This document shows positions 1,059 through 14,619 of a stretch of DNA of 14,619 nt, in pieces. Each line of letters opens with the position of its first letter. Positions within the stretch are counted from its first letter, which is position 1. Made by a program: the position numbers and the translations under genes. The notes below the pieces were generated by a model that saw only the letters and a program-made list of their open reading frames with translations, had not been told where the DNA came from and searched no databases. This stretch comes from a virus. Location of the stretch: UHGV virus genome UHGV-1690626. The stretch is one strand, 5' to 3'.

Positions 1059-1460
1059 ATGGCACCCGTTTCAGGTGAGAGAATGGACGACAGAATTCTC
1101 CGGTATATGCAGCGTGTTGTGAGAAATTCCCGCAACCCTGAATTTATGAATGAAGTTAAAGACGCCTGCCTTAAAAAGCAGGCGTTTTGCTTTGAAGCGC
1201 CGGATGGTTTTCTGGTGCTGCGTTCTGTGCTCAGTGACGATGGTATCCCTTATGTTCTGGTGTTGCTGGGTGTGTGTACGGGGTGTGCCGGTGTTGAGCG
1301 TTATCTGCCGGAGGTGAAGACATTAACCCGCCTGGCTGGCGGACGCTGGGCCGAATTTCATACGGCAAGACGAGGATTTATCCGGCTGGGAAAACGTCTG
1401 GGCTTTGAGCGAATGCCGGATGATGAGGATGGCTTCATGGTGTTCAGGATAGCAGTCTGA
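1059..1460 (+). CDS. Hypothetical 133-aa protein with C-x6-C ... C-x2-C cysteine pattern
   Basis: ORF track ORF; GAGG 10 nt upstream of ATG 1059 (alternative in-frame ATGs at 1083, 1107, 1146). Cysteines at about aa 37, 44, 73 and 76 (VCTGCAG). No family recognised. Confidence 0.5.
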   Translation: MAPVSGERMDDRILRYMQRVVRNSRNPEFMNEVKDACLKKQAFCFEAPDGFLVLRSVLSDDGIPYVLVLLGVCTGCAGVERYLPEVKTLTRLAGGRWAEFHTARRGFIRLGKRLGFERMPDDEDGFMVFRIAV

Positions 1461-1512
1461 CTGCCACTGTATTCATCATCGAGCGTAAACCCACATTGCA
1501 ATTCACATTCTG

Positions 1513-1537
1513 ACCCTGCTCCGGCAGGGTTTTTTGT
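1513..1537 (+). terminator. Rho-independent terminator immediately upstream of the RBS of the five-gene module
   Basis: CCCTGC (1514-1519) / GCAGGG (1524-1529) with loop TCCG, then TTTTTTG (1530-1536); followed by GAGGAG (1543-1548) and ATG at 1554. Confidence 0.7.
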
Positions 1538-1553
1538 TATCTGAGGAGCCATT

Positions 1554-2210
1554 ATGGGCGGAAGTAAAGGTGGTGGTGATACCAAAGTAAAACCAACAGC
1601 AGCGCAAATAGCACAGGAAGAGGTGGCCTGGAAAGGGTGGCAGGATTACAAAAATATTCTCCGTCCGGCAGAAGATAACTTCATGAAAAAGGTCGATGAC
1701 CTTAACAGTGAGCAGCAGTACGAAAATATCGCAGGCACAACAAATCTTGGGTATCAGAAACAGTTTGGTGAAGCGCGAAGGGAGCTGGCGGGTAATCTTG
1801 CTCAGTCCGGCGTTGACCCATCCAGTGGTCGTTTTAATGCAGTAATGGATGCAAATCAAAGCGACCAGGTGATCGGGCAGATTGACACGACCACACGGGG
1901 GCAGGTATCGCAGGCAGATAAATATATTGCCGGGCTACAGGATGTTGCGGCTCTCGGTTCCGGTCAGAAGGCAGATGCGTTACAGAGTTTTAACTCCCTG
2001 GCTGACAGCAGTCTGGCAAAAGCCAAATCGGATGCACAGGCGGCGTTTACGAAACAACAGGGGCGAGCTTCTCTTGTTGGCGCTGGTCTGGGAGCTGTAG
2101 GTGCGTACGCGATGCATAAGGCTGGCGGTAACGGAGGTGGTGGCGGCGCTAAAACGCCAGGCACCGGCGCTAATGCTATTCAGCATCAGGCTCAGAACTG
2201 GAGACTGTAA
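1554..2210 (+). CDS. Hypothetical 218-aa protein, Gly-rich with a C-terminal glycine-zipper-like hydrophobic segment; first gene of the module
   Basis: GAGGAG SD 5 nt upstream of ATG. C-terminal LVGAGLGAVGAYAM followed by GGNGGGGG. Stop lies 2 nt before the next start codon. Confidence 0.75.
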   Translation: MGGSKGGGDTKVKPTAAQIAQEEVAWKGWQDYKNILRPAEDNFMKKVDDLNSEQQYENIAGTTNLGYQKQFGEARRELAGNLAQSGVDPSSGRFNAVMDANQSDQVIGQIDTTTRGQVSQADKYIAGLQDVAALGSGQKADALQSFNSLADSSLAKAKSDAQAAFTKQQGRASLVGAGLGAVGAYAMHKAGGNGGGGGAKTPGTGANAIQHQAQNWRL

Positions 2211-2212
2211 TT

Positions 2213-2659
2213 ATGGAGTATGGCAAATACGAAACTCTCGCAAGGGCTGGTTATTCAGGCGCAGCCCGCCCACAGGGTGACTGGCAGACATCCGCCGCGC
2301 TGACACGCCAGCAATACGACGACTGGCGAACCAGATATTTGCCCCGCGTGGCAAGGCTGGCTGACCTTGGTGAGAACAACAGCCTGATGAATGCACAGCT
2401 TGCCCGGGTGGGCGGCCTTGCCACTTCCAGTCTCCGTACAGCGCAGATGGCGCAGGATAACCAGATGGCACGATATGGCGTTAACCGACCTGATAATCCC
2501 AACAGTAATACGCTGGGGTTACGTAATGCCCTGGCAATTGCTGGCGCGAAAAATGGTATCCGTGAAGCAGAGCAGGATCGTCAGATGAACATACTGACGG
2601 GGGCTTCTGCACCTGCAAGACAGCAACTGAGTGTTGGCGGACAACTGGTGTCAGCTTAA
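2213..2659 (+). CDS. Hypothetical 148-aa protein (Gln/Arg/Ala-rich), translationally coupled
   Basis: ATG 2 nt after the upstream stop; GGAGA about 10 nt upstream inside the previous gene. No family recognised. Confidence 0.7.
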   Translation: MEYGKYETLARAGYSGAARPQGDWQTSAALTRQQYDDWRTRYLPRVARLADLGENNSLMNAQLARVGGLATSSLRTAQMAQDNQMARYGVNRPDNPNSNTLGLRNALAIAGAKNGIREAEQDRQMNILTGASAPARQQLSVGGQLVSA

Positions 2660-2668
2660 GGAGGAAAT

Positions 2669-2920
2669 ATGGGATACGGTTTACTGGATATTGCGAATCA
2701 GTCACGTCGAGAGGCATTACAGGGAATAAGTGACGCCGACAGGCGACGTGAAGAAATTGAGGCTGCTAACAAGCAGATGGCGGCGCAACAGAAAGCGCAG
2801 AACAAACAGAATATCGGCACGGGAATTGGTACGGGTGCAGCTATGGGCGCTGCTGTTGGTGGTCTCCCCGGTGCGGCTATTGGTGCTGTCATAGGTGGTA
2901 TTGCTGGTTCTTTGTTTTAA
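2669..2920 (+). CDS. Small 83-aa protein: charged coiled-coil N-terminus plus C-terminal glycine-zipper (GxxxG) membrane segment
   Basis: AAGGAGG SD ahead of ATG 2669. C-terminal GTGIGTGAAMGAAVGGLPGAAIGAVIGGIAGSLF is a textbook glycine-zipper hydrophobic helix. Confidence 0.75.
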   Translation: MGYGLLDIANQSRREALQGISDADRRREEIEAANKQMAAQQKAQNKQNIGTGIGTGAAMGAAVGGLPGAAIGAVIGGIAGSLF

Positions 2921-2930
2921 GGAGTGGTGA

Positions 2931-4196
2931 ATGAGCGGATTTGCACAGGGTTTACTTGCCGGATTCAGCACGGTTGACCAGGCAATGACCCGTCGTAAGG
3001 AACTTGGTTTGCGAGAAGCACAGCTTGCTCAACAACAGAAAAATAACGAGCGCGATTTTGAATTTGCACAGTCGCAGTTTGAACATAATAAAGACGTTGA
3101 TCAGCGGAACTTTGATTACAGAGCCAAAGTCGACGACCGTAATTATGCACTGCAGGAAAGGGAGTTTAACGCCAACCAGAATTACCGGAATGCGTCGCTG
3201 GGTATGGAGCAGCAGCGACTCCGGATGCAGAAATACAACCAGCGACGGCTTGAGTATAACGATATGCTGGCGCGCGATCAGCCTGTGATGGCGGCGCTTG
3301 GAAAGGCTGTGGATGCTGGCGATCGGGATGCAGCAATGCGTCTTTACGGCCAGTTGTCAGAGGGTAATCCGCTGAGGCTGATGGCGAATGATGGCTATGT
3401 AGCGAAAGCGGGTCAGGCCGTGAACAACCTGCAAAAAATCTTTGATGACAAGCCGGACAGGGCTATCGCTTCACTTAATACGCCGGAGAATCTTGATGTC
3501 CTTTCCGGGGTGTTTGGCCCGGAACTGCAACAGCGTATTGGCATGCCCGATTCAACCGGGAAAAAGACGATAAAAGAGGCCAGGATTGGCAGTATCGTAC
3601 CGGCGCAGCAGGAAGGGTACGTACTTATTGGCCTTGATCTCACATACAGCGATGGCTCCACCGCGCATAAACCTGTAACAGAATACGGCAGTGCACATCC
3701 TGATGATCAAACCGTGCTGGCGGTGCCTGTTGATAAGGCTGTTGAGCTTGTCAGGGATCGCAGTAAATTCGCGGAAATTTCGAAAAATTTCGGCTATTTC
3801 ACGCCGAAGCAGCAGGGACTTTCTCTGGCGAAACTTCAGGAAGGAGCCAGCAGTGTAGCGGCGGAAGCGATCAAGAACGGCGGGAATGCTCAGGCGGCGG
3901 TGGATGAGTATTACGCTGCAACTGGTTCACCGCAACATCAGCAGAAAATTCAGCAGCAAAAAATTCAACAAGGGATTACCAGTTGGGCGGGTGATGATCC
4001 GGATAAGCAGGCATTCGCCAGAGAAGTTGCTTCCCGTCAGCCAGAAATGCTGGAGCCTCAGAATCAGAAATTGCTGGAAAACGGGTATGCGAATTTTCTC
4101 CGTATTCAAAAGGCTAAGGGGGAACAGGCCAGAGATGATAGTGCGGCCTCTGCATCTGAGTTTATCCGTGGTCTGAAACAGAATTACGCGCAGTAA
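2931..4196 (+). CDS. Hypothetical 421-aa protein with Gln/Arg-rich predicted coiled-coil N-terminal third
   Basis: AAGGAG SD ahead of ATG 2931, which is the first in-frame start after a TGA. Contains the QQKIQQQKIQQ repeat (nt about 3942-3975). No enzymatic motif recognised. Confidence 0.75.
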   Translation: MSGFAQGLLAGFSTVDQAMTRRKELGLREAQLAQQQKNNERDFEFAQSQFEHNKDVDQRNFDYRAKVDDRNYALQEREFNANQNYRNASLGMEQQRLRMQKYNQRRLEYNDMLARDQPVMAALGKAVDAGDRDAAMRLYGQLSEGNPLRLMANDGYVAKAGQAVNNLQKIFDDKPDRAIASLNTPENLDVLSGVFGPELQQRIGMPDSTGKKTIKEARIGSIVPAQQEGYVLIGLDLTYSDGSTAHKPVTEYGSAHPDDQTVLAVPVDKAVELVRDRSKFAEISKNFGYFTPKQQGLSLAKLQEGASSVAAEAIKNGGNAQAAVDEYYAATGSPQHQQKIQQQKIQQGITSWAGDDPDKQAFAREVASRQPEMLEPQNQKLLENGYANFLRIQKAKGEQARDDSAASASEFIRGLKQNYAQ

Positions 4197-4227
4197 TTCA
4201 CCATTCCTGTTAATACTATTTCCTGAT

Positions 4228-4253
4228 ACCCGGTCATTGTGCCGGGTTTTTTT
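4228..4253 (+). terminator. Rho-independent terminator immediately upstream of the giant gene's RBS
   Basis: ACCCGG (4228-4233) / CCGGGT (4242-4247) with loop TCATTGTG, then a run of seven T (4247-4253); GGAG at 4256-4259 and ATG at 4265. Confidence 0.75.
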
Positions 4254-4264
4254 ATGGAGTCTGT

Positions 4265-7200
4265 ATGGCTTATTCCGATGAACAGCGCCCTGAAGCGCAA
4301 TTTGGCAACCAGAACCGCAACAGCCTGAACATTCAGCAGCCGGGCGAGACTGACAGCTATGATGCGTTTTTCTCCGATCCCAATCGCTGGAAGGACAACA
4401 GCACGTCGTTCAGCCTGGGCGATGTATTGCCAACTATGGGGAAAGGTGTCGCCCAGTCCATCCGGGGGACAGGGGAAATGGCCCGTGGACTCGGTGATGC
4501 GATGATTCAGAGTCCTGTAAAAACAGGGGCGCGTATTTTAAATGAGTTCAGCCGTATGGGGCTGCCGGGAGTCGCAACTGTTCAGGATATTTTTGTCGGT
4601 GGCAGCAAGGGGGCGGATGAGGTCATCGACACTCTGCCTGATGGAAAAAATGCGGTTACTGATACTGTCGGTAAAGGTCTGAAGGCCACAGGCAAGGCAG
4701 TCAGTGATGGTGCCAAAGCCTCGGATGAATGGCTGACAGATCAGATGTCGCCGGGTGCTGTTCGTGCGCTGAACACGCCAATGAGTGAAGGCTATGATGA
4801 TTCTGCGGTCTTGCTGACGAAGGGTGTAAACCTGATTGGTGCGCTTGTACCTGATCTGGTTGCAGGCGGTGTGACTAAAAAGCTGGGTGAAGTCACTCTG
4901 CGAAAAGTGCTGACCGCCGGGCTGGAGAAAAAATACATTGCGGCAGGGATGCAGCCGGAAAGAGCTACCGCACTGGCAGCAGAAGCTGTCGATAAAAAAA
5001 TGCCGGATTTATTCCAGGCAGGCCTGATCACCCATTCCTCAGCCAGCGCACAGGGGCAGAGTGCAATGGCAGCAGCAGACTCTGTTCTTAACGCGGATTA
5101 CTCTGAGCTGGCGAAGTCCCCGAAATTTCAGCAGACGTTTTTGTCAATTGATGCAGATCCGCAGCACGCACAGCTTACTGATCGCCAGAAAATGGATCTG
5201 GCAAAAGAGCGTGTTGCCGATGAGGTGCGCGCGCAGCTGGCAACCGATCCTCAGTTGCTGGCTGTGAATGCCATGGCGGCAAAACTGGGCGATGCACAGT
5301 TGCTTAATCTGGCGATGCGGGGTACGGCGAAGACCGTTAAGAGCGGCATTATCAGAAACGCCACAGAACAGGGCGTAATTAACGGGGCGCAGGGCGGCTA
5401 TTCGCGTTACCAGGAAAATATGGCGTTGCGTGAGACCGCCGGAATGGATGTGTCGCCGTGGGAGGGCGTGGCTGACGCAACAATCGACGGTGCTGCTCTT
5501 GGTGCAGCGATGGGGGCTCCATTTGGCGCGGTTGCCGGATATCGTGGCAGACGTCAGGCCGCAGACGAAGCCGCCATGCGTGAGGCTGAAGTCGTACAGC
5601 AGGGTGAAGCAGCCCCGCAACCCGAACCGGTTGATCCGGTGGCACAGCATCGTGAATCCATGCAGGGCATGAACCGCGAGCAGCTTCTGGAACAGTATGC
5701 TGATGCGGATATGGCACATGAGGGAGACACGTCTGCCGTTCATCGCCGGGAAGCCGCCAGCCAGCTGTTAAATGAACTGGATGAACAGGCGAAGCGACAG
5801 GCGGTGATGGATGAGCTGAAGGCGAAGCCGCGCCCTGAACTGCTTGAGGAATACCGAAAACTCAGCCTGAAGGAAGGGCGTACTGATACTGAAGAGCAGC
5901 AGTTACAGGCTATCCGTGATGTGCTTCGCCCTCAGCAGGAGGCCAGACCGGAGGCACAGCCACAGCCGGAAAATGCGGATGATGGCGACGGGAGTATTTA
6001 CCCGACGGTGCGGTTCCGCGATCCGGATGAAGTTCGTATTGAAATTAACGGGAGTGGTGCGTCCAGACCAGCAGAACGCATTGAAAAGGTGCGTCCGGAC
6101 AACCGTTATTTCACGGATGAAAAAAGTGCTCTGGGGAGCGACGTTTTCCGCAATGCCAGCGCCACCGGCCTGAAACCGTCCGTAGTGAAGAAAGGCGAGA
6201 ATCAGTATGCCGTTGAAATGGATAATCCTGCGTTCTCTGAAGATGTGGCAACGGAGACCATTAACACTCTGGCTGACGGAGAGCGTATTACTGATGCTGA
6301 TCCGATGGAACAGCCCGCGTTCATGCGTGACCCGCGATTCCGTGGTTTCACGGGGGATGATACAGAAGTGCAGGCCCGCCTTGCCCGTGGCAACGCGCCG
6401 ACGGCAGAGGAGCTTGTACGTTCACAGATGGCTGAAGGTGATGCCGGTCCGACAGCACAGGAGTTAACTGAGCGTCCACGCCTTCCCGCTCCCGGCGATA
6501 TTCATCCCGGACAGGGATATCCGTTACCAGGAGAAGTGGCGCGTACGCCGGATGAAAATCAGGCCGGACGTGGTGGTCGTTTTACCACAACCGGTGAGGT
6601 GAAGGGCCAGAGTTTCCAGAAAGGACGTGCGCAGGCACCGGAAAATGCCGCTGGTCGCCAGGGGGAAATACTGGAGGGCGAACCGGTTCGTCGTGGTCTG
6701 CCGTCACCGGATGAGCAGAACGCCACAGCACCAGTGCGTGAAGGACTTCCTGCACCTGAACAGCGTGGGGTTGATATGCCACATCCTGAATCACTCCCTC
6801 GTATGGTTCGTGACTCCCTTCCGGAACTGGCACAGCAGGCAGAAGCGCGCAGACAGACCGGGGATAATCGCCAGACCATAACCGATGTTCCGGATACTGA
6901 GGTGCCGGTGCCGGTGCCGGTAGATAAACCGAGCACTCACCAGCAGGCGCGTGGTGCAAAAATAGAAGACTTTGGCGAGGAGATTAAGGGCGCGGCAAAA
7001 CACCGTTATGCACAGCTTGCCGAAACACTGGGTAAAACGCTGGAAGACAGGGATTATGTCACGCAACCGCTGAGCAAACTGTTCCCGAAACCGGACTACG
7101 CAAAACTGGCGAACGAAGGTGCCGATGCTGATACCCTGGCAATGATAGCGCTGTATCGTAGCGATATTCCGGCGAAGACGAAACACAATACGGCTGGCTG

Positions 7201-10200
7201 GGGGGAGAGCGTAAAAAAAGTACGACACAGTGTATCGGAAATGCTGAACGGAACGGTCAGCGCGAAACGCCTCGCAGAATGGATGGAAGGCAGAATGCCC
7301 TCCCGTTACGCGGATACCTGGCAACTGTTACGCACGCTGCCACCTTCACAGATGGACAAGGCTTCTGCTTATCGGGTGGTATCGGGTGTGTATCAGGCGG
7401 CAGGAGGGAAGCGTTACGATCCGCCACAGAAACTTTATTCACTGCGCAATAAGGACAATAAGGGGACTAACCTCTTTTTCTCGGAAAGCAGGGATGAATT
7501 ACTGACAAAGGCGAAAGTCTGGTTTGCAGAGCTGGAGGAAAAGTCACAGGCGAAAGGTGATGAAAAAACAGCACCGTCACCGGATGACAAAATCAGCTTT
7601 GACGTTTACCGGAATACCCGCAGTGGCGATATTTTTATCGCTTATGGCAAAAACAAAATGCGGGTGAGAGGTGGCTTTAAGTCAGCCAGTGATGCGCGTA
7701 AGTACATTGATTCACATCGTGATGAGCTTGTTCGTCATGTGAAGGAGATGCGGGAGATTTCGCGTGAGGAGCAGCGTAACGCCACCAACCGCGATCGTAC
7801 CGGACCAGAACGCCGCAAGGGGGATGTTTCGCCGGAGCAGTTCAGTGATGCGTTTGGTTTTCGTGGTGTGCAGTTTGGTAATTATGTGGAAGGTCCGCGT
7901 CGTCAGGCTGATTTGAACCGGGCTTATGACTCGCTGCATGACCTGGCTGATGTGCTGAACGTGCCGACAAAAGCGCTTTCTCTGAACGGTCGTCTTGGGC
8001 TTGCTTTTGGTGCCCGTGGTAAGGGTAAGGCGGCGGCACACTATGAGCCGGGTGAGGTGGCAATCAACCTGACAAAAGGTAACGGACCGGGGGCGCTGGC
8101 CCACGAATGGTTCCATTCACTGGATAATTATTTTGGTCGTTATGATGTTTCCACTGACGGGAAGATCACGTCAGGTGGCGACTATATGACGGAAGCACAG
8201 CGTGCCGGGCGCGTATTTAAAGACGGCAGATATGTTGATGCGGAATATCCGGTACGTCAGGAGGTTTACGACGCGTTTAAAGGCGTGATGAAAGCGATCA
8301 ACAGCAGTGACATGCCGCGTCGTTCAGCGCTTCTCGATGAGGTGCGCTCAAAACCGTACTGGTCAACGGATGTTGAAATGGCGGCGCGTGCCTTTGAGCG
8401 TTATGTTCAGGATAAAGCGCGTACGGCTGGCGTGGAGAATGATTATCTGGTCAATATCCGTAAGGCACCTGAGCACAACACAGATAACACCTGGGCTTAT
8501 CCGACGAATGCGGAACTGGATGGTGGCATTCGTGAGGCATTCGATCACCTGTTCCGCACCCTGAAAACCCGTGAGACGGACAAGGGCGTTGCGTTTTATT
8601 CCCGTAAGGGCGTGACCCGCACACCTGAAGGCAATCTCATTTCGGATGTTAACCGCAGTGCGGAAGCCAAAGGCAGCCCGGTCCCGCAGGTTGAAGCGGT
8701 TGCCCGTGGCGTGATGAGTGGCATTAAGGACAGTGACCTGAAGGTCCGCGTGGTGAAGTCACAGAAAGAGGCTGAAGCACTGGCGGGTGAATCATTCGAC
8801 GGTTACGGCAAGGTGCACGCGTTCTATCGTCCGGATAAACGTGAAATTGTCCTGGTGGCGGATAACATTCCTGACGGGCGGACCGTTCGCGAGAAGCTGC
8901 GTCACGAGATTATCCACCATGCAATGGAGCATGTAGTCACGCCAGCGGAATATCAGACGATTATTAAGACCGTACTGAAAACCCGTGACAGTGATAACGC
9001 CACCATCCGTGAAGCCTGGCGTAAGGTTGATGCGTCTTATGGTAAGGAATCACCGGAAGTGCAGGCGGGTGAATTTCTGGCACATATGGCGGAGAAACAG
9101 CCGAATAAATTCGTGGCGGCATGGGAGCGTGTTGTTGCCCTGGTCAAAGGGGTACTGCGTCGCACGGGGTTACTGAAGCCGACAGAGCTGAACGATATCA
9201 GACTTGTTCGCGAAACTATTCGCACGTTAGGCCAGCGTGTGCGGGAAGGTTACACGCCGCGTGAGGATGGCGCTGGCGCATCGTCTCAGTACTCCCGTAG
9301 CGGTAAGCCTGATCCGTTCAAAGTGCCGGAAGGTGAGGGCGAGCGTTATCGTGATGACCTTGCCAGAATGATGAAGTCTCTGCGCTCAACGGATTTAACG
9401 GTAAACATCGGGCGTACGCCGCCGGTATTGCGTCACCTTGGCGCACCAGATTTGCCGCTGGTTATCTCCCGCGACACTGTGCGTAAGGCCACCAATGGTG
9501 TGAAACATGTGGTGCCGATGGATGTTATCGAGAGACTACCGGAACTGATGCACGATCCGGATGCAATTTACCGTTCCGCGACAGAAAGAAATGCGGTTGT
9601 GATGCTGCTTGATGCCATGGATAAAAATGGTGATCCTGTAGTGTCAGCGGTACACATGAAGGCTGTCCGGTCGCGCCTGGAAATCAACAAGGTAGCTTCA
9701 GTTTACGGTACAGAAAATGGAAAAAAACTGAAGAGTATGGAAATGACCGGGTTAACGTTGTACCGGAGAGAAAAATTAAGCCGCGATAACCTTCTGCACA
9801 GAGGGCTTCAATTGCCCAAAGGGGAACATTCTTATCGCGGCTCTGCGGATAAAATACTCTATCCTGAAGATATTCGCAAGGGGCCGCATTACTCCCGTAC
9901 CAGCAGTCTGACACCGGAAGAGACAATTGCATCGCGTTTTGTGCGCCAGATGCAGGATAAATTCCAGGTGCTGAAAGCTGTTCAGGAGAATATCCGTAAA
10001 ACTGGCGGAAAAATAGACGACAGTAACAACGCTTATATGGCAGAAGAACTCTTCCACGGGAAGGCGGAAAACGACCTGAACGTGATGAAGGAGCGCTATG
10101 TTCAGCCGCTGGCTAAATTACTGGCGGACTACAAAATTGCGCAGGCCGATCTGGATGAGTACCTCTACGCCCGTCACGCGCCGGAACGTAACGCGCATAT

Positions 10201-12634
10201 CGCGAAAATCAACCCGAAAATGCCGGACGGCGGTTCGGGGATGACCAACGCGGAAGCGGCGGAAATCATGCAGCGTGTGCGTAACAGTGGCAAACAGGCA
10301 CAGTATGACCGTCTGGCAGGGATTGTTGACGATATGCTGGCCCGTCGCCGTGAGCTTATCCGTGAGGCCGGACTGGAAGAGAGCGGTGTGGTGGATGCCT
10401 GGCAGAAAGCCTACCGTTACTACGTTCCCCTGAAAGGGCAGGATGTTGACGGTGTGGTGTCACTGCCCCGTACAGGTAAAGGCTTCACTATCGGCGGACG
10501 TGAAAGCAGGCAGGCCATGGGGCGTGCATCCCGCGCACAGTCTCCTTCCACTCAGGCGATACAGGATTTGAGCGAATCGCTGATCCGCAATCGCAAAAAT
10601 GAAGTGGGTAACGCCTTCCTGAAACTGGTACAGGATAATCCAGACAAGGATTACTGGCAGGTATTCACCAATGAGCGACCGGACACCATGCGTGCGATTG
10701 CAGAGCGTGTTGTTCCGGAAACCGGTGAAACCCGTCACGAAGTTGTCGAACGTCCTGTACCGATGGCAATGATGGCAGACCGGTACTTCACCACCAAAAA
10801 GAACGGCAAAACGTACTACATCAAACTCCATGATCCGCGCCTGATGCGTGCGATGAAGAATATGGGACCGGAAACCAGTAACGCCGTAATCCGCACGCTG
10901 GGGAAAGTTAACCGCTTCCTGGCAACGGTGAACACGTCGTATAACCCGGAATTTCTGGTCAGTAACTTCATCCGTGACGTGCAGACGGCGGTGATGAACC
11001 TGAAGGCGGAGCAGGGAAGGAGCGACGGTAAACTGAAAGGGCTGGATAACTTATCCGCCCTGGCTGTGGTGAAAGACAGCCGTTCTGCCATGTCAGCCGT
11101 ATACGCCAGTCTGCGTGGTAAAACCCTCACGGGCAAAGGCGCACAGTGGCAGAAAGTGTGGAAAGAGTTTGTTGAGGACGGAGGTAAAACCGGCTGGTTT
11201 AACATGGGTGACCTTGAAGGCCAGCAGAAGGAAATGGATCGCCTTGTATCGCTGGCGAAGGGAGGATGGAAAGGCCAGAGTATCGGTGCATGGAATTCGT
11301 TCCTTAACCTTGTCGAGGATGCCAACGGTGCGGTTGAAAACGCTCTGCGTCTTTCTGCCTATAAACACGCCCGTGATGCTGGTTTGTCACGCCAGCAGGC
11401 GGCGTCTCTTGCCAAAAACATGACGGTGAACTTTAACCGTCGTGGTGAGCAGGGAGCGCTGATGAACTCGCTGTATATGTTTGCCAACGCCAGCATTCAG
11501 GGGACCGCAAACCTGGTGAGAACGCTCGGACATCTTAATGGCGACGGGCCGTTACCGGAGCGCCTTCGCTGGAAGAATCTCAATGTACCGCAGAAAATCG
11601 CGCTTGCAGCTGTGGGAGCGGGTTATCTGCTTGGCTCGCTTAACCGCAGTGTTGCGGGGGAGGATGATGACGGGGTTAACTGGTATGACAAGGTGCCGTC
11701 TCATGTGAAAGAGCGTAACCTCGTCATTATGAAATCGGTGTTCGGGGGCAAGGCCGGAGAGTACTGGAGTATTCCTCTGCCTTACGGGTACAACGTTTTC
11801 TTCCTGCTCGGGCATACTGCTGAAGGTGTGGCAGCGGGCGACCTGACTGCTTCACGTGCTGCCGGTAATGTTGTCGGTGGTATCCTGGGGGCATTCAGTC
11901 CTGTGGGCAGTGAAACGTCGGAAACACTGTCCGGGGCATTGCTGAAAAATGCAGCGCCGACCATTCTGCGTCCGTTTGCGAACCTTGCCATGAATGAAAA
12001 CTTCATGGGGGCGCAGATTTACCAGGAGAACATGCCATTTGGCACACCGAAACCGGACAGCCAGCTGGGCAGACGTTCAACGCCTGAGGCGTACAAGGCG
12101 TTTGCATCCTGGCTGAATGCGTTCTCAGGTGGCAGCCAGTATCGTCCCGGCGCGGTGGATATCACACCGGAATCGCTGAAATTCTGGATTGACTATATCT
12201 CCGGAGGGACAGGGCGCTTCATTTCCAAAACCACAGATGCGGCGGTGAAATCGCTGAACGGTATTGATATACCGGAGCAGCAGGTGCCCTTCCTGGGGAA
12301 AATTTCGGGTGAGGTGATGCCGTATGCTGACCAGCAGAAGATGTATGACCGGATGACGGAGGTTGCGCAGTACCACGCAGAGCTGAAGAGTCTGACCGGT
12401 GCAGAAAGAACGGCATTCATTGACGAGAACAACGGAAAATTGTCGATGAACGGGCTTATGCAGGATACCCGGAAGAGACTGAAGGATTTGCGTAAACAAC
12501 GTGATGCCATTTACGCCGACAGTACTCTCAGTCTGGCGCAACAGTCGGCGATGGTGAAATCGGTAGAGCGGGATATGAAAATTGCCGTGGATCGGTTTAA
12601 CCGCGAGTACAACAAAAAAGTGGGAGTGGATTAA
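4265..12634 (+). CDS. Giant 2,789-aa multidomain protein with two HExxH zincin-like motifs; candidate virion-delivered polyvalent or ejection protein
   Basis: Uninterrupted 8,370-nt ORF with GGAG 6 nt upstream. ALAHEWFHSLD at aa 1280-1284 (nt 8102-8116) and LRHEIIHHAMEH at aa 1547-1551 (nt 8903-8917). Acidic Pro/Glu/Gln/Arg-rich low-complexity stretch at aa about 430-900. Glycine-zipper-like segment IDGAALGAAMGAPFGAVAGY at aa about 405-425. Hydrophobic/Gly-rich stretches in the C-terminal 700 aa. No Walker A, DEAD-box or single-subunit RNA polymerase motifs seen by eye. Reality of the CDS is high confidence; function is inference. Confidence 0.85.
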   Translation: MAYSDEQRPEAQFGNQNRNSLNIQQPGETDSYDAFFSDPNRWKDNSTSFSLGDVLPTMGKGVAQSIRGTGEMARGLGDAMIQSPVKTGARILNEFSRMGLPGVATVQDIFVGGSKGADEVIDTLPDGKNAVTDTVGKGLKATGKAVSDGAKASDEWLTDQMSPGAVRALNTPMSEGYDDSAVLLTKGVNLIGALVPDLVAGGVTKKLGEVTLRKVLTAGLEKKYIAAGMQPERATALAAEAVDKKMPDLFQAGLITHSSASAQGQSAMAAADSVLNADYSELAKSPKFQQTFLSIDADPQHAQLTDRQKMDLAKERVADEVRAQLATDPQLLAVNAMAAKLGDAQLLNLAMRGTAKTVKSGIIRNATEQGVINGAQGGYSRYQENMALRETAGMDVSPWEGVADATIDGAALGAAMGAPFGAVAGYRGRRQAADEAAMREAEVVQQGEAAPQPEPVDPVAQHRESMQGMNREQLLEQYADADMAHEGDTSAVHRREAASQLLNELDEQAKRQAVMDELKAKPRPELLEEYRKLSLKEGRTDTEEQQLQAIRDVLRPQQEARPEAQPQPENADDGDGSIYPTVRFRDPDEVRIEINGSGASRPAERIEKVRPDNRYFTDEKSALGSDVFRNASATGLKPSVVKKGENQYAVEMDNPAFSEDVATETINTLADGERITDADPMEQPAFMRDPRFRGFTGDDTEVQARLARGNAPTAEELVRSQMAEGDAGPTAQELTERPRLPAPGDIHPGQGYPLPGEVARTPDENQAGRGGRFTTTGEVKGQSFQKGRAQAPENAAGRQGEILEGEPVRRGLPSPDEQNATAPVREGLPAPEQRGVDMPHPESLPRMVRDSLPELAQQAEARRQTGDNRQTITDVPDTEVPVPVPVDKPSTHQQARGAKIEDFGEEIKGAAKHRYAQLAETLGKTLEDRDYVTQPLSKLFPKPDYAKLANEGADADTLAMIALYRSDIPAKTKHNTAGWGESVKKVRHSVSEMLNGTVSAKRLAEWMEGRMPSRYADTWQLLRTLPPSQMDKASAYRVVSGVYQAAGGKRYDPPQKLYSLRNKDNKGTNLFFSESRDELLTKAKVWFAELEEKSQAKGDEKTAPSPDDKISFDVYRNTRSGDIFIAYGKNKMRVRGGFKSASDARKYIDSHRDELVRHVKEMREISREEQRNATNRDRTGPERRKGDVSPEQFSDAFGFRGVQFGNYVEGPRRQADLNRAYDSLHDLADVLNVPTKALSLNGRLGLAFGARGKGKAAAHYEPGEVAINLTKGNGPGALAHEWFHSLDNYFGRYDVSTDGKITSGGDYMTEAQRAGRVFKDGRYVDAEYPVRQEVYDAFKGVMKAINSSDMPRRSALLDEVRSKPYWSTDVEMAARAFERYVQDKARTAGVENDYLVNIRKAPEHNTDNTWAYPTNAELDGGIREAFDHLFRTLKTRETDKGVAFYSRKGVTRTPEGNLISDVNRSAEAKGSPVPQVEAVARGVMSGIKDSDLKVRVVKSQKEAEALAGESFDGYGKVHAFYRPDKREIVLVADNIPDGRTVREKLRHEIIHHAMEHVVTPAEYQTIIKTVLKTRDSDNATIREAWRKVDASYGKESPEVQAGEFLAHMAEKQPNKFVAAWERVVALVKGVLRRTGLLKPTELNDIRLVRETIRTLGQRVREGYTPREDGAGASSQYSRSGKPDPFKVPEGEGERYRDDLARMMKSLRSTDLTVNIGRTPPVLRHLGAPDLPLVISRDTVRKATNGVKHVVPMDVIERLPELMHDPDAIYRSATERNAVVMLLDAMDKNGDPVVSAVHMKAVRSRLEINKVASVYGTENGKKLKSMEMTGLTLYRREKLSRDNLLHRGLQLPKGEHSYRGSADKILYPEDIRKGPHYSRTSSLTPEETIASRFVRQMQDKFQVLKAVQENIRKTGGKIDDSNNAYMAEELFHGKAENDLNVMKERYVQPLAKLLADYKIAQADLDEYLYARHAPERNAHIAKINPKMPDGGSGMTNAEAAEIMQRVRNSGKQAQYDRLAGIVDDMLARRRELIREAGLEESGVVDAWQKAYRYYVPLKGQDVDGVVSLPRTGKGFTIGGRESRQAMGRASRAQSPSTQAIQDLSESLIRNRKNEVGNAFLKLVQDNPDKDYWQVFTNERPDTMRAIAERVVPETGETRHEVVERPVPMAMMADRYFTTKKNGKTYYIKLHDPRLMRAMKNMGPETSNAVIRTLGKVNRFLATVNTSYNPEFLVSNFIRDVQTAVMNLKAEQGRSDGKLKGLDNLSALAVVKDSRSAMSAVYASLRGKTLTGKGAQWQKVWKEFVEDGGKTGWFNMGDLEGQQKEMDRLVSLAKGGWKGQSIGAWNSFLNLVEDANGAVENALRLSAYKHARDAGLSRQQAASLAKNMTVNFNRRGEQGALMNSLYMFANASIQGTANLVRTLGHLNGDGPLPERLRWKNLNVPQKIALAAVGAGYLLGSLNRSVAGEDDDGVNWYDKVPSHVKERNLVIMKSVFGGKAGEYWSIPLPYGYNVFFLLGHTAEGVAAGDLTASRAAGNVVGGILGAFSPVGSETSETLSGALLKNAAPTILRPFANLAMNENFMGAQIYQENMPFGTPKPDSQLGRRSTPEAYKAFASWLNAFSGGSQYRPGAVDITPESLKFWIDYISGGTGRFISKTTDAAVKSLNGIDIPEQQVPFLGKISGEVMPYADQQKMYDRMTEVAQYHAELKSLTGAERTAFIDENNGKLSMNGLMQDTRKRLKDLRKQRDAIYADSTLSLAQQSAMVKSVERDMKIAVDRFNREYNKKVGVD
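6902..6919 (+). repeat. In-frame tandem hexanucleotide repeat (GTGCCG)x3 encoding VPVPVP
   Basis: ggtgccggtgccggtgccggta read directly in the sequence, inside the low-complexity region of the giant gene. Confidence 0.9.
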
Positions 12635-13023: not shown

Positions 13024-13596
13024 TCATTGGCGTACCTCCTTCGGCGGTTCTGGTAGCGGCATCCAGTGGGTTACTTCTTTGAGATGCAGGTCTTCGCCAT
13101 CACCGTCATCCCAAGTGGGATTGCCATCATTAAACCAGTCGCCATATACGCCGACCTGAGTGTTGGGGATGCTTGGTGGGTAGTTGTTTTTAAAGTCAGC
13201 TGCTAACACATAGTATTGTCGCTCTCCCATTTCTGGCATCCGCTCACTACAGCTTATCCAACTATCCGGAGTTCCCGGAGAGTTGCCATTTACATCGAAG
13301 TTTGGCTCTGCGTCCTGAACCAGGAGGATGTAACCATTCTTGGCAGTATCAAGTTCTAACGCCTCGGTGACGGTGCCGAAATAGCGATTACCTAAATCAG
13401 CATCACAAGTGCTTACATCAATGGAAACTTCCATGCCCTCGATTAATTCTGGCAAGTTGTAAGTTTGGCTTACAGGTTCGGCTTCCAGAGATGCCAGCGC
13501 AATCCGTGCAAGTTCCATTTGTTCGCCACGGGTAAGTCCGTTATCAAGCGGATTTTTAATGAATAATTCGATACGTTCTTTGGTTATAGCGCTCAT
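13024..13596 (-). CDS. DUF551-domain phage protein (190 aa)
   Basis: C-terminal LKEVTHWMPLPEPPKE matches the W-x-P-L-P-E-P-P signature I associate with DUF551 proteins of lambdoid early regions. ATG at 13596 with AAGGAG SD chosen over the TTG at 13677 reported in the ORF track. Start lies 1 nt after the upstream gene's stop. Confidence 0.65.
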   Translation of the reverse strand: MSAITKERIELFIKNPLDNGLTRGEQMELARIALASLEAEPVSQTYNLPELIEGMEVSIDVSTCDADLGNRYFGTVTEALELDTAKNGYILLVQDAEPNFDVNGNSPGTPDSWISCSERMPEMGERQYYVLAADFKNNYPPSIPNTQVGVYGDWFNDGNPTWDDGDGEDLHLKEVTHWMPLPEPPKEVRQ

Positions 13597-13597
13597 C

Positions 13598-14383
13598 TCA
13601 CTCTCCTTTGATACGAATGCCCGCGGCGTGTGGCACATTAACTTCCACGATGCGCACTGTTGGTTTGTACATCTCAATCGCTGTCAGCCAGTCAGCTCCT
13701 GTCATGCGCTTTTCCGCATCGCCATTAGTCCACTTAACCGGTACACCAATAGACTTCATCGCGATTTCTATTTCCCCGGCGATGGCGCTTTTTCCGCAAC
13801 CAGTAAAACCAGATACAACGACAAGAACTTCGCCTTTGGCTGGTTTTATTTCCCGTGCTTCCTGCCCTGATTTGCGCAGCAAAACAGCGTACTTTAATGC
13901 GTCCTGGGCTTTCTGAAATTTCAGTGCATAGTCAGTGGCGATTTTCTCCAGTTCAGCAATACGCTTACTCCCATCCGAGATAACACCTTCGTAATACTCA
14001 CGCTGCTCGTTGAGTTTTGATTTTGTCTCCTCAAGCTCAACGCGCAGCTTCCCTACCGTTAGCGCAATATCCTCGTTCTCCTGGTCGCGGCGTTTGATGT
14101 ATTGCTGGTTTCTTTCCCGTTCATCCAGCAGTGCCAGCACGGTAGCCGGATTGGCTGCGGCGATGAATTCAGCATTGGCCTGCTGTTCCATTTGGAAATC
14201 TTCATCGAAACCGCTTTCAGGATGTGCTCCTTCAATTCTGCAAATGGGAATATATCCAGCAGCCTCGCGATGAATTAGTGCATCATCACCATCAAATCGG
14301 TTCTCTCCATATTCGAGCGACCACTCACCACGCGTTGCTTTTTCTGCCTTTTCACGCAGTACCTGATAGTTAATCTCGCTCAT
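13598..14383 (-). CDS. Ead/Ea22-like early-region protein (261 aa) with coiled-coil middle and a Walker-A-like motif near the C-terminus
   Basis: N-terminal MSEINYQVLREKAEKATRGEW plus a long charged coiled coil resemble Ea22-like proteins of lambdoid early-left operons. GFTGCGKS (nt about 13777-13800) fits G-x4-G-K-S. ATG at 14383 preferred over the TTG at 14407. Confidence 0.55.
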   Translation of the reverse strand: MSEINYQVLREKAEKATRGEWSLEYGENRFDGDDALIHREAAGYIPICRIEGAHPESGFDEDFQMEQQANAEFIAAANPATVLALLDERERNQQYIKRRDQENEDIALTVGKLRVELEETKSKLNEQREYYEGVISDGSKRIAELEKIATDYALKFQKAQDALKYAVLLRKSGQEAREIKPAKGEVLVVVSGFTGCGKSAIAGEIEIAMKSIGVPVKWTNGDAEKRMTGADWLTAIEMYKPTVRIVEVNVPHAAGIRIKGE

Positions 14384-14619
14384 TTTTCTCTTCGCTCCGG
14401 TATACAAGAATTACAACGTCACCTCTGCTAATTACGCGAGCTGGACCTCCTGGCTCCATGCTGTCAATCCCGAAGGCTTCGGAAAACGCATTCATTGCCT
14501 TCTGGCGTTGATCCTGCTTACGGCATTTATTCCATTTTTTCAGTAACAACAGCGATAGCCACCGCCCGGCGCAGAACATAATGTAAAAATAACCAAGAAG
14601 CGCCAGACCTGTGTTGAGG
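14370..14619 (-). CDS. Hypothetical protein, 3' part only (5' end beyond window), with a hydrophobic stretch
   Basis: Minus-strand frame is open from the window edge to the stop at 14370-14372. Contains LALLGYFYIMFCAGRWLSLLLL. Overlaps the Ea22-like start by 14 nt. Confidence 0.4.
   Translation of the reverse strand, partial: LNTGLALLGYFYIMFCAGRWLSLLLLKKWNKCRKQDQRQKAMNAFSEAFGIDSMEPGGPARVISRGDVVILVYRSEEKNERD

Follow-up and report, generated by a model that had tools for sequence, protein, structure and literature searches.

Kim et al. reportedly described in 2005 the transmembrane glycine zipper, whose GxxxGxxxG faces pack helices in channels such as VacA and MscS. Ladders of this kind recur in three proteins encoded in a 14,619-nucleotide (nt) stretch of the virus genome UHGV-1690626 (the window; the whole stretch was analysed and positions are counted from its first letter), which we assign to the late region of a 933W/phi24B-like short-tailed phage. 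Short-tailed Shiga-toxin (Stx) phages spread Shiga-toxin genes. The three proteins belong to a group of five, p218, p148, p83, p421 and a giant of 2789 amino acids (aa), for which the ejection proteins of phages P22, T7 and N4 are the closest described systems.

The P22 channel, resolved in situ, forms an outer-membrane pore of 36 helices, 24 from 12 gp7 subunits (two apiece) and 12 from gp20, and the lipid-facing residues listed for gp7 are I191, L204, I208, I218, I222, L224, L225 and F229 (bioRxiv 10.64898/2026.09.03.749273). T7 gp16 is soluble and folded before ejection and refolds into the membrane afterwards, with a putative membrane region (TMH I) at aa 243-410 (PMC8954989). N4 gp50 has a lipid-binding N-terminal domain that enters nanodiscs and is followed by a low-complexity linker of ~100 residues, and its cargo refolds in the cytoplasm while membrane-anchored (PMC13434306). 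Literature searches turned up nothing relevant that joined the glycine zipper or GxxxG motif with ejection or virion proteins.

We consider it fairly probable that p218, p148, p83, p421 and the giant are ejection proteins and that their glycine-zipper segments enter host membranes after expulsion through the tail, the membrane insertion being what we infer from the analysis as a whole.

Glycine zippers in a module of virion proteins

We defined a strict zipper segment as a run of at least 14 aa free of D, E, K, R, H, N and Q and in which a ladder of four or more [GAS]xxx[GAS] rungs includes two or more Gly; the definition was set after the motifs had been seen, and conservation was given more weight. 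Exactly three segments of the module satisfied it, one each in p218 (aa 172-187), p83 (aa 49-83) and the giant (aa 409-426), with P = 0.016, 0.019 and 0.044 per protein in composition-preserving shuffles. No strict segment was found in any of 69 annotated non-ejection phage proteins (18,237 aa) from T7, P22, N4 and fetched relatives (Fisher's test, 3/6 module versus 0/69 control proteins: about 3e-4).

In p218 (1554..2210, + strand), the strict segment ASLVGAGLGAVGAYAM (2067..2114) is flanked by R171 and H188-K189 and its ladder is G176/G180/A184. A sequence-only reading of the window had quoted the core of this segment, LVGAGLGAVGAYAM (aa 174-187, nt 2073-2114), as the end of the open reading frame (ORF); the motif lies at that place, as do the sequences quoted for p83 (GTGIGTG...GSLF, aa 50-83, nt 2816-2917) and for the giant, but 31 further residues follow it in p218. 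The small protein p83 (2669..2920, +) consists of a polar N-terminal half and a C-terminal double zipper, IGTGIGTGAAMGAAVGGLPGAAIGAVIGGIAGSLF (aa 49-83, 2813..2917), in which two short helices are joined by a G-L-P-G turn and end in a terminal Phe. The giant (4265..12634, +), a polyvalent virion protein, carries IDGAALGAAMGAPFGAVAGY at aa 407-426 (5483..5542), with the ladder G409/413/417/421/425, followed by R-G-R-R and a linker. The same reading had taken the three for one and the same motif, which holds for the motif class and not for the sequence: the ladder is all-Gly with five rungs in the giant, double in p83 and only GxxxGxxxA in p218. All zipper helices are short, with only about 16-18 uncharged residues, and marginally hydrophobic (Kyte-Doolittle (KD) hydropathy 1.1-1.6), and their hydrophobicity overlaps that of both P22 gp7 membrane helices.

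Conservation extends over the nearest phages and far beyond them. When window nt 1500-6000 was compared with phage records, 186 matches were obtained at 80-96% identity, nearly all from Stx-converting or related short-tailed phages of E. coli and Shigella. Diverged modules, located by tblastn, in part with single diverged sequences as queries, were found in synteny in four further lineages, namely Aeromonas phage phiARM81mr, the Vibrio D459/D171 type (two representatives of about 104 Vibrio phages with the module), Vibrio 1F273_PE002 and Vibrio douglas 12A4. The gene order common to all lineages is a protein of ~200-240 aa, one of 117-168 aa, one of 77-85 aa, one of 421-566 aa and then a giant of ~2800-3770 aa, and Gly-rich hydrophobic segments occupy the same three positions in all five lineages (window plus four) at 16-48% overall identity; the Vibrio and Aeromonas modules have theirs at the place of the p218 zipper as well. 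In two of these genomes, Vibrio D459 (L003 3434-4225) and D171 (L005 3481-4272), an HNH endonuclease gene on the opposite strand separates the p83-like from the p421-like gene.

At the level of single residues, all 24 p218 homologs, down to 37% identity, keep G176 and G180 in the midst of a C-terminal third that is otherwise variable. In p83, G56, G60, G64, G68, G72 and G76 are invariant in a first five-sequence alignment, and G56, G68, G72 and G76 still are in a wider seven-sequence alignment. An exhaustive search with giant aa 150-440 returned 106 cluster representatives, mostly giants of 2000-5500 aa in which the matching region lies near the N-terminus; an N-terminal module (N-module) is present at about aa 110-445 in about 100 of these representatives. 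In 71 of 75 long distant giants the match ends with the zipper pattern DPxxGV...A..EG..G...G...GA.GG, and G413 and G417 are invariant in the giant family. Across the 75 giants the uncharged run is 17 residues long in the median and 42% Gly, Glu precedes the zipper in 58, the first polar residue that follows is Arg or Lys in 45, K+R average 0.55 in the 12 residues before and 2.39 in the 12 after, and the 100 residues following the module form an acidic low-complexity linker (on average 19% D+E, 7% Pro). We take the three zippers to be real and under selection because they are conserved across lineages and in the distant giants. A chance or low-complexity origin was considered and rejected in view of the conservation and of the control set.

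Evidence that these proteins travel in the particle comes from a preprint on phi24B that combines cryo-electron microscopy (cryo-EM) with virion proteomics (10.64898/2026.04.10.717836). In the examined part of that proteome, the giant ('gp47 IP?') has 10,962 peptide-spectrum matches (PSMs) and ranks as the second most abundant protein, and matches are also reported for the orthologs of p421 ('gp48 Transcription factor?', 47852-49117; 1,634 PSMs), p218 (gp51; 523 PSMs), p148 (its counterpart gp50; 129 PSMs) and p83 (an 86-aa ORF at 47590-47841; 13 PSMs, with the unique peptide EALQGISDADR), the portal having 2,226 PSMs for comparison. The C-terminal 36 residues of p83 contain no tryptic cleavage site. 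Identity to phi24B is 94% for p218 (vb_24B_44), 93% for p83 (vb_24B_46), 87% for p421 and 91% for the first 500 aa of the giant (vb_24B_48, the preprint's gp47), and p148 was matched to the phi24B ORF 47095-47577 (gp50) by gene order and length only. Presence in virions is thus shown for the five module orthologs of phi24B, 87-94% identical where compared, rather than for this phage itself.

The giant is absent from the phi24B cryo-EM map, a statement on ordered capsid and tail density that the authors make for this protein only, and they already propose it as an ejection protein (10.64898/2026.04.10.717836). This sole structural study so far does not discuss the four other module proteins that it detected, and gp48, gp50 and gp51 are never mentioned in its main text. 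Going by annotation, its authors counted 'a transcription regulation factor' and 'a homolog of a bacteriocin' among the contaminants (10.64898/2026.04.10.717836). The p83 and p421 orthologs are probably among these, that of p83 because NCBI names p83 homologs 'bacteriocin'. Both this name and 'transcription factor?' for p421 look like misleading annotations, which suggests that two virion proteins were probably discarded through them.

Counterparts in P22, N4 and T7

Applied to the described ejection proteins, the strict definition selects two segments in P22 gp7, aa 189-205 and 207-229, which end in ...PWGAAIGGGIGLLGSLF, and none in P22 gp20 or gp16, T7 gp14 or gp15, or N4 gp51 or gp52. The lipid-facing residues listed for gp7 fall in this double zipper. 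P22 gp7 is therefore a direct precedent for a glycine-zipper hairpin as the membrane element of a phage DNA conduit, and gp7 with gp20 is one for two co-encoded proteins that pool helices in one pore. A C-terminal double glycine zipper that ends in an aromatic residue is common to p83 (aa 49-83) and gp7 (aa 189-229), and the last 18 residues of the p83 family align with gp7 aa 212-229 (hhalign 87%, 61% identity) with a native score of 39.0 versus a maximum of 28.8 in 30 block shuffles. Neither p83 (PHROG 594) nor p218 (PHROG 611) falls in the gp7 family, PHROG 598 'DNA ejection', and we speak of a close resemblance of p83 to the gp7 hairpin in position, layout and chemistry, as judged from sequence, and claim no homology.

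Distant relatives of gp7 (Shewanella ZP9, Sortsne and Vibrio 1.067.O; L014, L015, L016) lack the second C-terminal zipper helix and have a Gly-rich hydrophobic N-terminus instead, e.g. MGGAISGIGNAVGGILGGIG. Membrane helices seem to change place within the gp7 family.

The sequence-only reading overlooked related segments, among them an N-terminal GxxxGxxxG in p421 (2931..4196, +; PHROG 601), the abundant virion protein encoded directly upstream of the giant. This segment, SGFAQGLLAGFSTV (aa 3-15, 2937..2975), reads G3xxxG7xxxG11; in the homologs compared, from five lineages, G7 and G11 do not vary, and MATWQQGINSGGFLAG, with which P22 gp20 begins, aligns with them. The p421 N-terminus is a possible fourth zipper of the module.

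The giant is laid out as an N-terminal helical module, the acidic low-complexity linker and a series of Pfam domains that all score far above their cut-offs: LPD5 (7403-7852), LPD1 (8333-8572), MuF_C (9500-9769) and LPD38 (11678-12295), the last restricted to phage-type polyvalent proteins (PMC5512222). The N-module (aa 135-445, 4667..5599) was modelled with AlphaFold2 (AF2) from 26 diverse sequences as an all-helical domain (predicted local distance difference test, pLDDT, 73.3; predicted template-modelling score, pTM, 0.59), in which the zipper sits inside a long helix (model residues 268-310, pLDDT 74-93). Comparison of the N-module family with N4 gp50 aa 1-900 by hhalign gave a probability of 91.8% with E 7.4e-7 over 140 columns; the native score was 57.2, and no reversed or shuffled N4 control exceeded 23.5. 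In this alignment giant aa 260-420 (nt 5042-5524) pairs with gp50 aa 297-439, which is only part of the N4 domain of about 900 aa, and the zipper lies on gp50 AGLGALYGFGSAGVV. Giant aa 260-420 is probably homologous to this part of the N4 gp50 N-terminal domain. A further hydrophobic helix passed over by the sequence-only reading, AVLLTKGVNLIGALVPDLVAGGVTKKLG (aa 181-208, 4805..4888), is the most hydrophobic segment of the giant (KD 1.57) and not a zipper, with the family consensus ...G.GS..P.LA.GG..G; it may be the counterpart of the membrane helices that the N4 authors predict at gp50 aa 224-278.

Among the BFVD structure models, the N-module matched, at probability 1.00, stretches at the N-terminus of further phage giants, of which some carry the label RNA polymerase or polyvalent protein. 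By sequence, the PDB yielded no relative for the p218 profile, the giant or p421, a word-indexed search with the giant N-terminus retrieved only fragments of close relatives, and the N-module showed no similarity to P22 gp16 (0.25%), which with T7 gp16 (0.28%) was used as a negative control for the N4 comparison. Of the module proteins, only the giant, through its N-module, significantly matches a characterised ejection protein in sequence. The strict definition selects one segment in T7 gp16, aa 387-405, which falls inside the putative membrane region TMH I.

Two relatives of the giant differ in annotation or arrangement. The annotated start of the phiARM81mr giant (KT898134; L004 5651-7637) at 7637 omits about 600 N-terminal residues of a frame that is open from 5651, and the omitted part includes the conserved N-module and the zipper AIEGGLIGMGTGGAVGAVGG. 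In Pasteurella phage Pmp11 (OR544128; L007 8473-15444), a giant with the same N-module comes straight after a 'head-tail adaptor' gene and extends to the record's end; the arrangement differs in that the genes for the small proteins do not precede it.

Proposed placement of the zippers in the host envelope

How might such proteins reach and cross the envelope? Marginal hydrophobicity (~42% Gly, 16-18 uncharged residues) would let them stay soluble in the producing cell and in the capsid. On ejection, p83 would insert in the outer membrane as a two-helix hairpin, like gp7, and the p218 helix and possibly the p421 N-terminus may join the same outer-membrane ring in the manner of P22 gp20; contacts between helices would be made by their small-residue faces, and insertion would go together with oligomerisation and depend on it. 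p421 and the helical bodies of the other proteins would then lengthen the channel across the periplasm, and the giant's N-module would form or dock at its inner-membrane end. The giant zipper would span the inner membrane, N-terminus out and C-terminus in, an orientation suggested by its flanks, which are acidic on the N-terminal side, rich in Arg/Lys on the C-terminal side and in keeping with the positive-inside rule, and the linker with the LPD/peptidase cargo would reach the cytoplasm still tethered, as proposed for the N4 virion RNA polymerase (vRNAP). Most likely, p83 and perhaps p218 act at the outer membrane and the giant helix at the inner membrane, because in P22 gp7 and gp20 are in the outer membrane and gp16 is in the cytoplasmic membrane, and in N4 gp52 is at the outer and the gp50 N-domain at the inner membrane.

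Several observations weigh against a membrane role or against the likenesses on which it draws. No experiment or prediction in this analysis shows membrane insertion of any module protein, and none of the zipper helices would by itself be classed as a classical transmembrane helix: on the position-independent Hessa scale each comes to +3 to +6 kcal/mol. For the N4 comparison, the authors predict the gp50 membrane helices at aa 224-278 and not at the zipper counterpart aa 425-439 (PMC13434306), fold searches with the N-module against solved structures gave no convincing relative, and no significant similarity was found between p421 and N4 gp51 or between p218 or p83 and N4 gp52. For the P22 comparison, the likeness of p83 to gp7 spans only 18 compositionally biased residues and drops to 5.9% with broader family profiles, p218 aligns with gp7 colinearly and zipper on zipper but without statistical support (hhalign 1.35%), and p421 shows no significant similarity to P22 gp20. 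The AF2 model of p218, built with 24 homologs, predicts four long helices at low confidence (pLDDT 45.8) and is unusable, and the virion evidence for p83 is thin, nearly all of its 13 PSMs coming from one peptide.

An alternative is helix packing inside the particle only, in which the zippers would serve oligomerisation or stacking in the capsid or portal lumen, or incorporation into the procapsid, and never enter a membrane. GxxxG faces also pack soluble helices, the T7 core proteins stack as ordered helices on the portal before ejection, the helices here are short and marginally hydrophobic, and AF2 keeps the giant zipper in a folded helical domain. The sequence-only reading had named burial of the segments in soluble domains as an outcome that would speak against its proposal; such an outcome is not decisive, because ejection proteins fold as soluble proteins before ejection and refold into membranes after it, and the model, with the zipper in a long, confidently predicted helix of an all-helical domain, fits either state. 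Against a role in the particle only, the double zipper of P22 gp7, which is the nearest counterpart with a resolved structure, lies in the membrane, the N4 homolog of the N-module binds lipid, and ~17 positions free of charged or polar residues in 75 sequences, with acidic-then-basic flanks, are typical of membrane helices; we regard a role confined to the particle as unlikely, and the two roles are not exclusive.

The sequence-only reading had gone further and proposed that the three proteins assemble into one membrane-spanning structure such as a conduit across the host envelope. As a setting, the conduit is the most likely one, given that the proteins are co-encoded and have virion orthologs and that P22 gp7 provides a precedent; as for the three zippers in one structure, nothing shows mutual contact or one shared membrane. 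A single heteromeric pore in one membrane, made of all three zippers, would recall the 36-helix outer-membrane pore that gp7 and gp20 helices form in P22, with the two helices of p83 and the one of p218 repeating the same 2+1 arithmetic and the three segments matching in length and composition. Yet the module that holds the giant zipper is probably a homolog of the N4 gp50 N-domain, a domain placed at the inner-membrane end of the channel, and the charges flanking the zipper suggest that the giant crosses a membrane with ~2360 residues beyond, which is hard to fit to an outer-membrane ring. We give it rather poor prospects, and it is less likely than the two-membrane arrangement.

That p83 is a membrane-active accessory protein, whether bacteriocin-like or another toxin, a lysis factor or an exclusion factor, with the p218 and giant motifs as unrelated low-complexity sequence, is very improbable: in its favour stand the NCBI name of the homologs, the contaminant label given to the 'bacteriocin homolog' of phi24B and a weak match to Pfam Bacteriocin_IIc (PF10439; E 0.0011), but this match scores 19.3 bits versus a cut-off of 27.1 and covers the Gly-rich part only, the N-terminal half of p83 is a long polar segment in which no double-glycine leader was seen, no curated NCBIfam model stands behind the name, a p83 peptide is found in virions, the gene keeps its place between virion-protein genes in five lineages, and the p218 and giant motifs are conserved across very distant homologs.

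Gene neighbourhood and comparison with known systems

The + strand order in the window is a truncated lom, p133, p218, p148, p83, p421 and the giant; the module genes are contiguous on one strand, with intergenic gaps of 2-68 nt from p218 on, and are clustered in the late structural region, a trait of podovirus ejection proteins. A long gene annotated as tail fibre (as lipoprotein in 1F273_PE002) stands immediately before the module in the Aeromonas and Vibrio relatives; in Stx-type phages lom and other small genes come in between. Pfam has no match in p133, p218, p148, p421 or the giant's first 1046 residues, and in PHROGs each module protein falls in a family of function unknown, p218 having a weak match to PHROG 8003 'virion structural protein' besides its own family. 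The virion protein p148 (2213..2659, +; PHROG 596) is syntenic in all lineages compared and has no strict segment.

The first gene of the conserved module encodes p133 (1059..1460, +; PHROG 610, function unknown), which contains a hydrophobic run, PYVLVLLGVCTGCAGV, and is conserved in its C-terminal half. Four of the five lineages have a p133-like gene in first place, douglas 12A4 having none annotated, and the counterparts in Vibrio D459, Aeromonas and Vibrio 1F273_PE002 (119-137 aa) share similar C-terminal sequence. Its ortholog was not found in the examined part of the phi24B virion proteome, and comparison with P22 gp14 showed no similarity; p133 is probably not a virion protein and may act in the assembly of the internal proteins. 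Good hairpins of terminator type, with T runs, lie on the + strand at 652-672 (after lom), 1512-1531 (between p133 and p218) and 4228-4247 (between p421 and the giant), so that p133 has one on either side; to be transcribed late, the module would presumably depend on Q-type antitermination.

Within the giant, a third segment that had gone unnoticed, IALAAVGAGYLLGSLNRSV (aa 2445-2463, 11597..11653), is a hydrophobic helix and not a zipper and lies just upstream of LPD38; the position is hydrophobic too in the Vibrio D459, Aeromonas and Vibrio douglas giants, again with no glycine zipper. Giant aa 1178-1433 (7796-8563), overlapping LPD5/LPD1, matches NCBIfam CLCA_X (NF041907) with 152.8 bits (cut-off 260), and since a zincin-like HEWFH motif can be read at ~aa 1172, just before this match, the region is probably a metallopeptidase core. 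Downstream of the giant, two overlapping ORFs of 217 and 269 aa lie on the - strand at window 13024-14407, where the GC skew changes sign.

More broadly, marginally hydrophobic glycine zippers might be a general, portable device of phage ejection proteins, allowing soluble storage and then oligomeric insertion, with the N-module as a shared membrane-docking vehicle, a generalisation that we put forward only tentatively. On this view the zipper would mark the inner-membrane crossing point of the chain, and an N-module of ~300 aa ending in EG..G...G...GA.GG would carry unlike fused cargoes: an RNA polymerase in N4-like phages and anti-defence/peptidase polyvalent domains in Stx-type and many marine phages. 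One sequence test selects the three segments described here together with the gp7 membrane hairpin and a part of T7 gp16 that is putatively membrane-bound, and where phages lack annotation it could serve to locate the parts of ejection proteins that insert into membranes. The analysis also ties giant phage proteins in ~100 clusters, so far uncharacterised, to the N-terminal domain of N4 vRNAP, which has been studied by experiment, and points to residues whose mutation should block infection and not assembly: G60/G64/G72/G76 of p83, G176/G180 of p218 and G413/G417/G421 of the giant. In the searchable literature, the recurring zippers, their family-wide conservation, the gp7-hairpin resemblance and the N4 homology of the N-module were not found described.

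Among known families, the Pfam glycine-zipper families Gly-zipper_YMGG (PF13441), Gly-zipper_OmpA (PF13436) and Gly-zipper_Omp (PF13488) share the pattern and length and are the best profiles for p83 and the giant zipper. They differ in that all matches lie below the curated cut-offs (for Gly-zipper_YMGG, 26.7 bits with p83 and 18.9 bits with the giant zipper, under 28.9), although some close p83 homologs have a precomputed PF13441 assignment; the p218 segment matches none of them, and their members are mostly small bacterial envelope lipoproteins and not virion proteins. With the phage polyvalent proteins (Iyer et al. 2017, PMC5512222) the giant shares the defining LPD and MuF_C domains, which places it in that class; the main text of that paper makes no mention of a glycine zipper or transmembrane segment.

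The T7 system is alike in that soluble internal proteins, gp14, gp15 and gp16 with gp6.7 and gp7.3, refold into a trans-envelope channel and that small proteins of 88-99 aa take part (PMC8954989, PMC11784390). It differs in that gp16 has no sequence relationship to the N-module (0.28%) and gp14 and gp15 are without a strict zipper. N4 differs in its RNA polymerase cargo, where LPD5/LPD1/MuF_C/LPD38 are found here, in gp51 and gp52, which are not detectably related to the upstream proteins here, and in a weaker zipper counterpart that passes a relaxed definition only. In both systems, however, the giant virion protein is encoded last, after smaller ejection proteins, and consists of an N-terminal helical module, a low-complexity linker and cargo, the module being N-terminal and followed by the linker in each.

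P22 has three ejection proteins, the largest the 609-aa gp16, compared with five virion proteins and a 2789-aa polyvalent protein here, and its hairpin lies within gp7, whereas here it forms a separate 83-aa protein. Both systems have virion-internal proteins encoded side by side in a late operon; gp7 (229 aa) and p218 (218 aa) are of similar length, each with its zipper near the C-terminus, and gp7 and the p83 family share the two-helix double zipper and the terminal GSLF and have similar turns of PWGA type.

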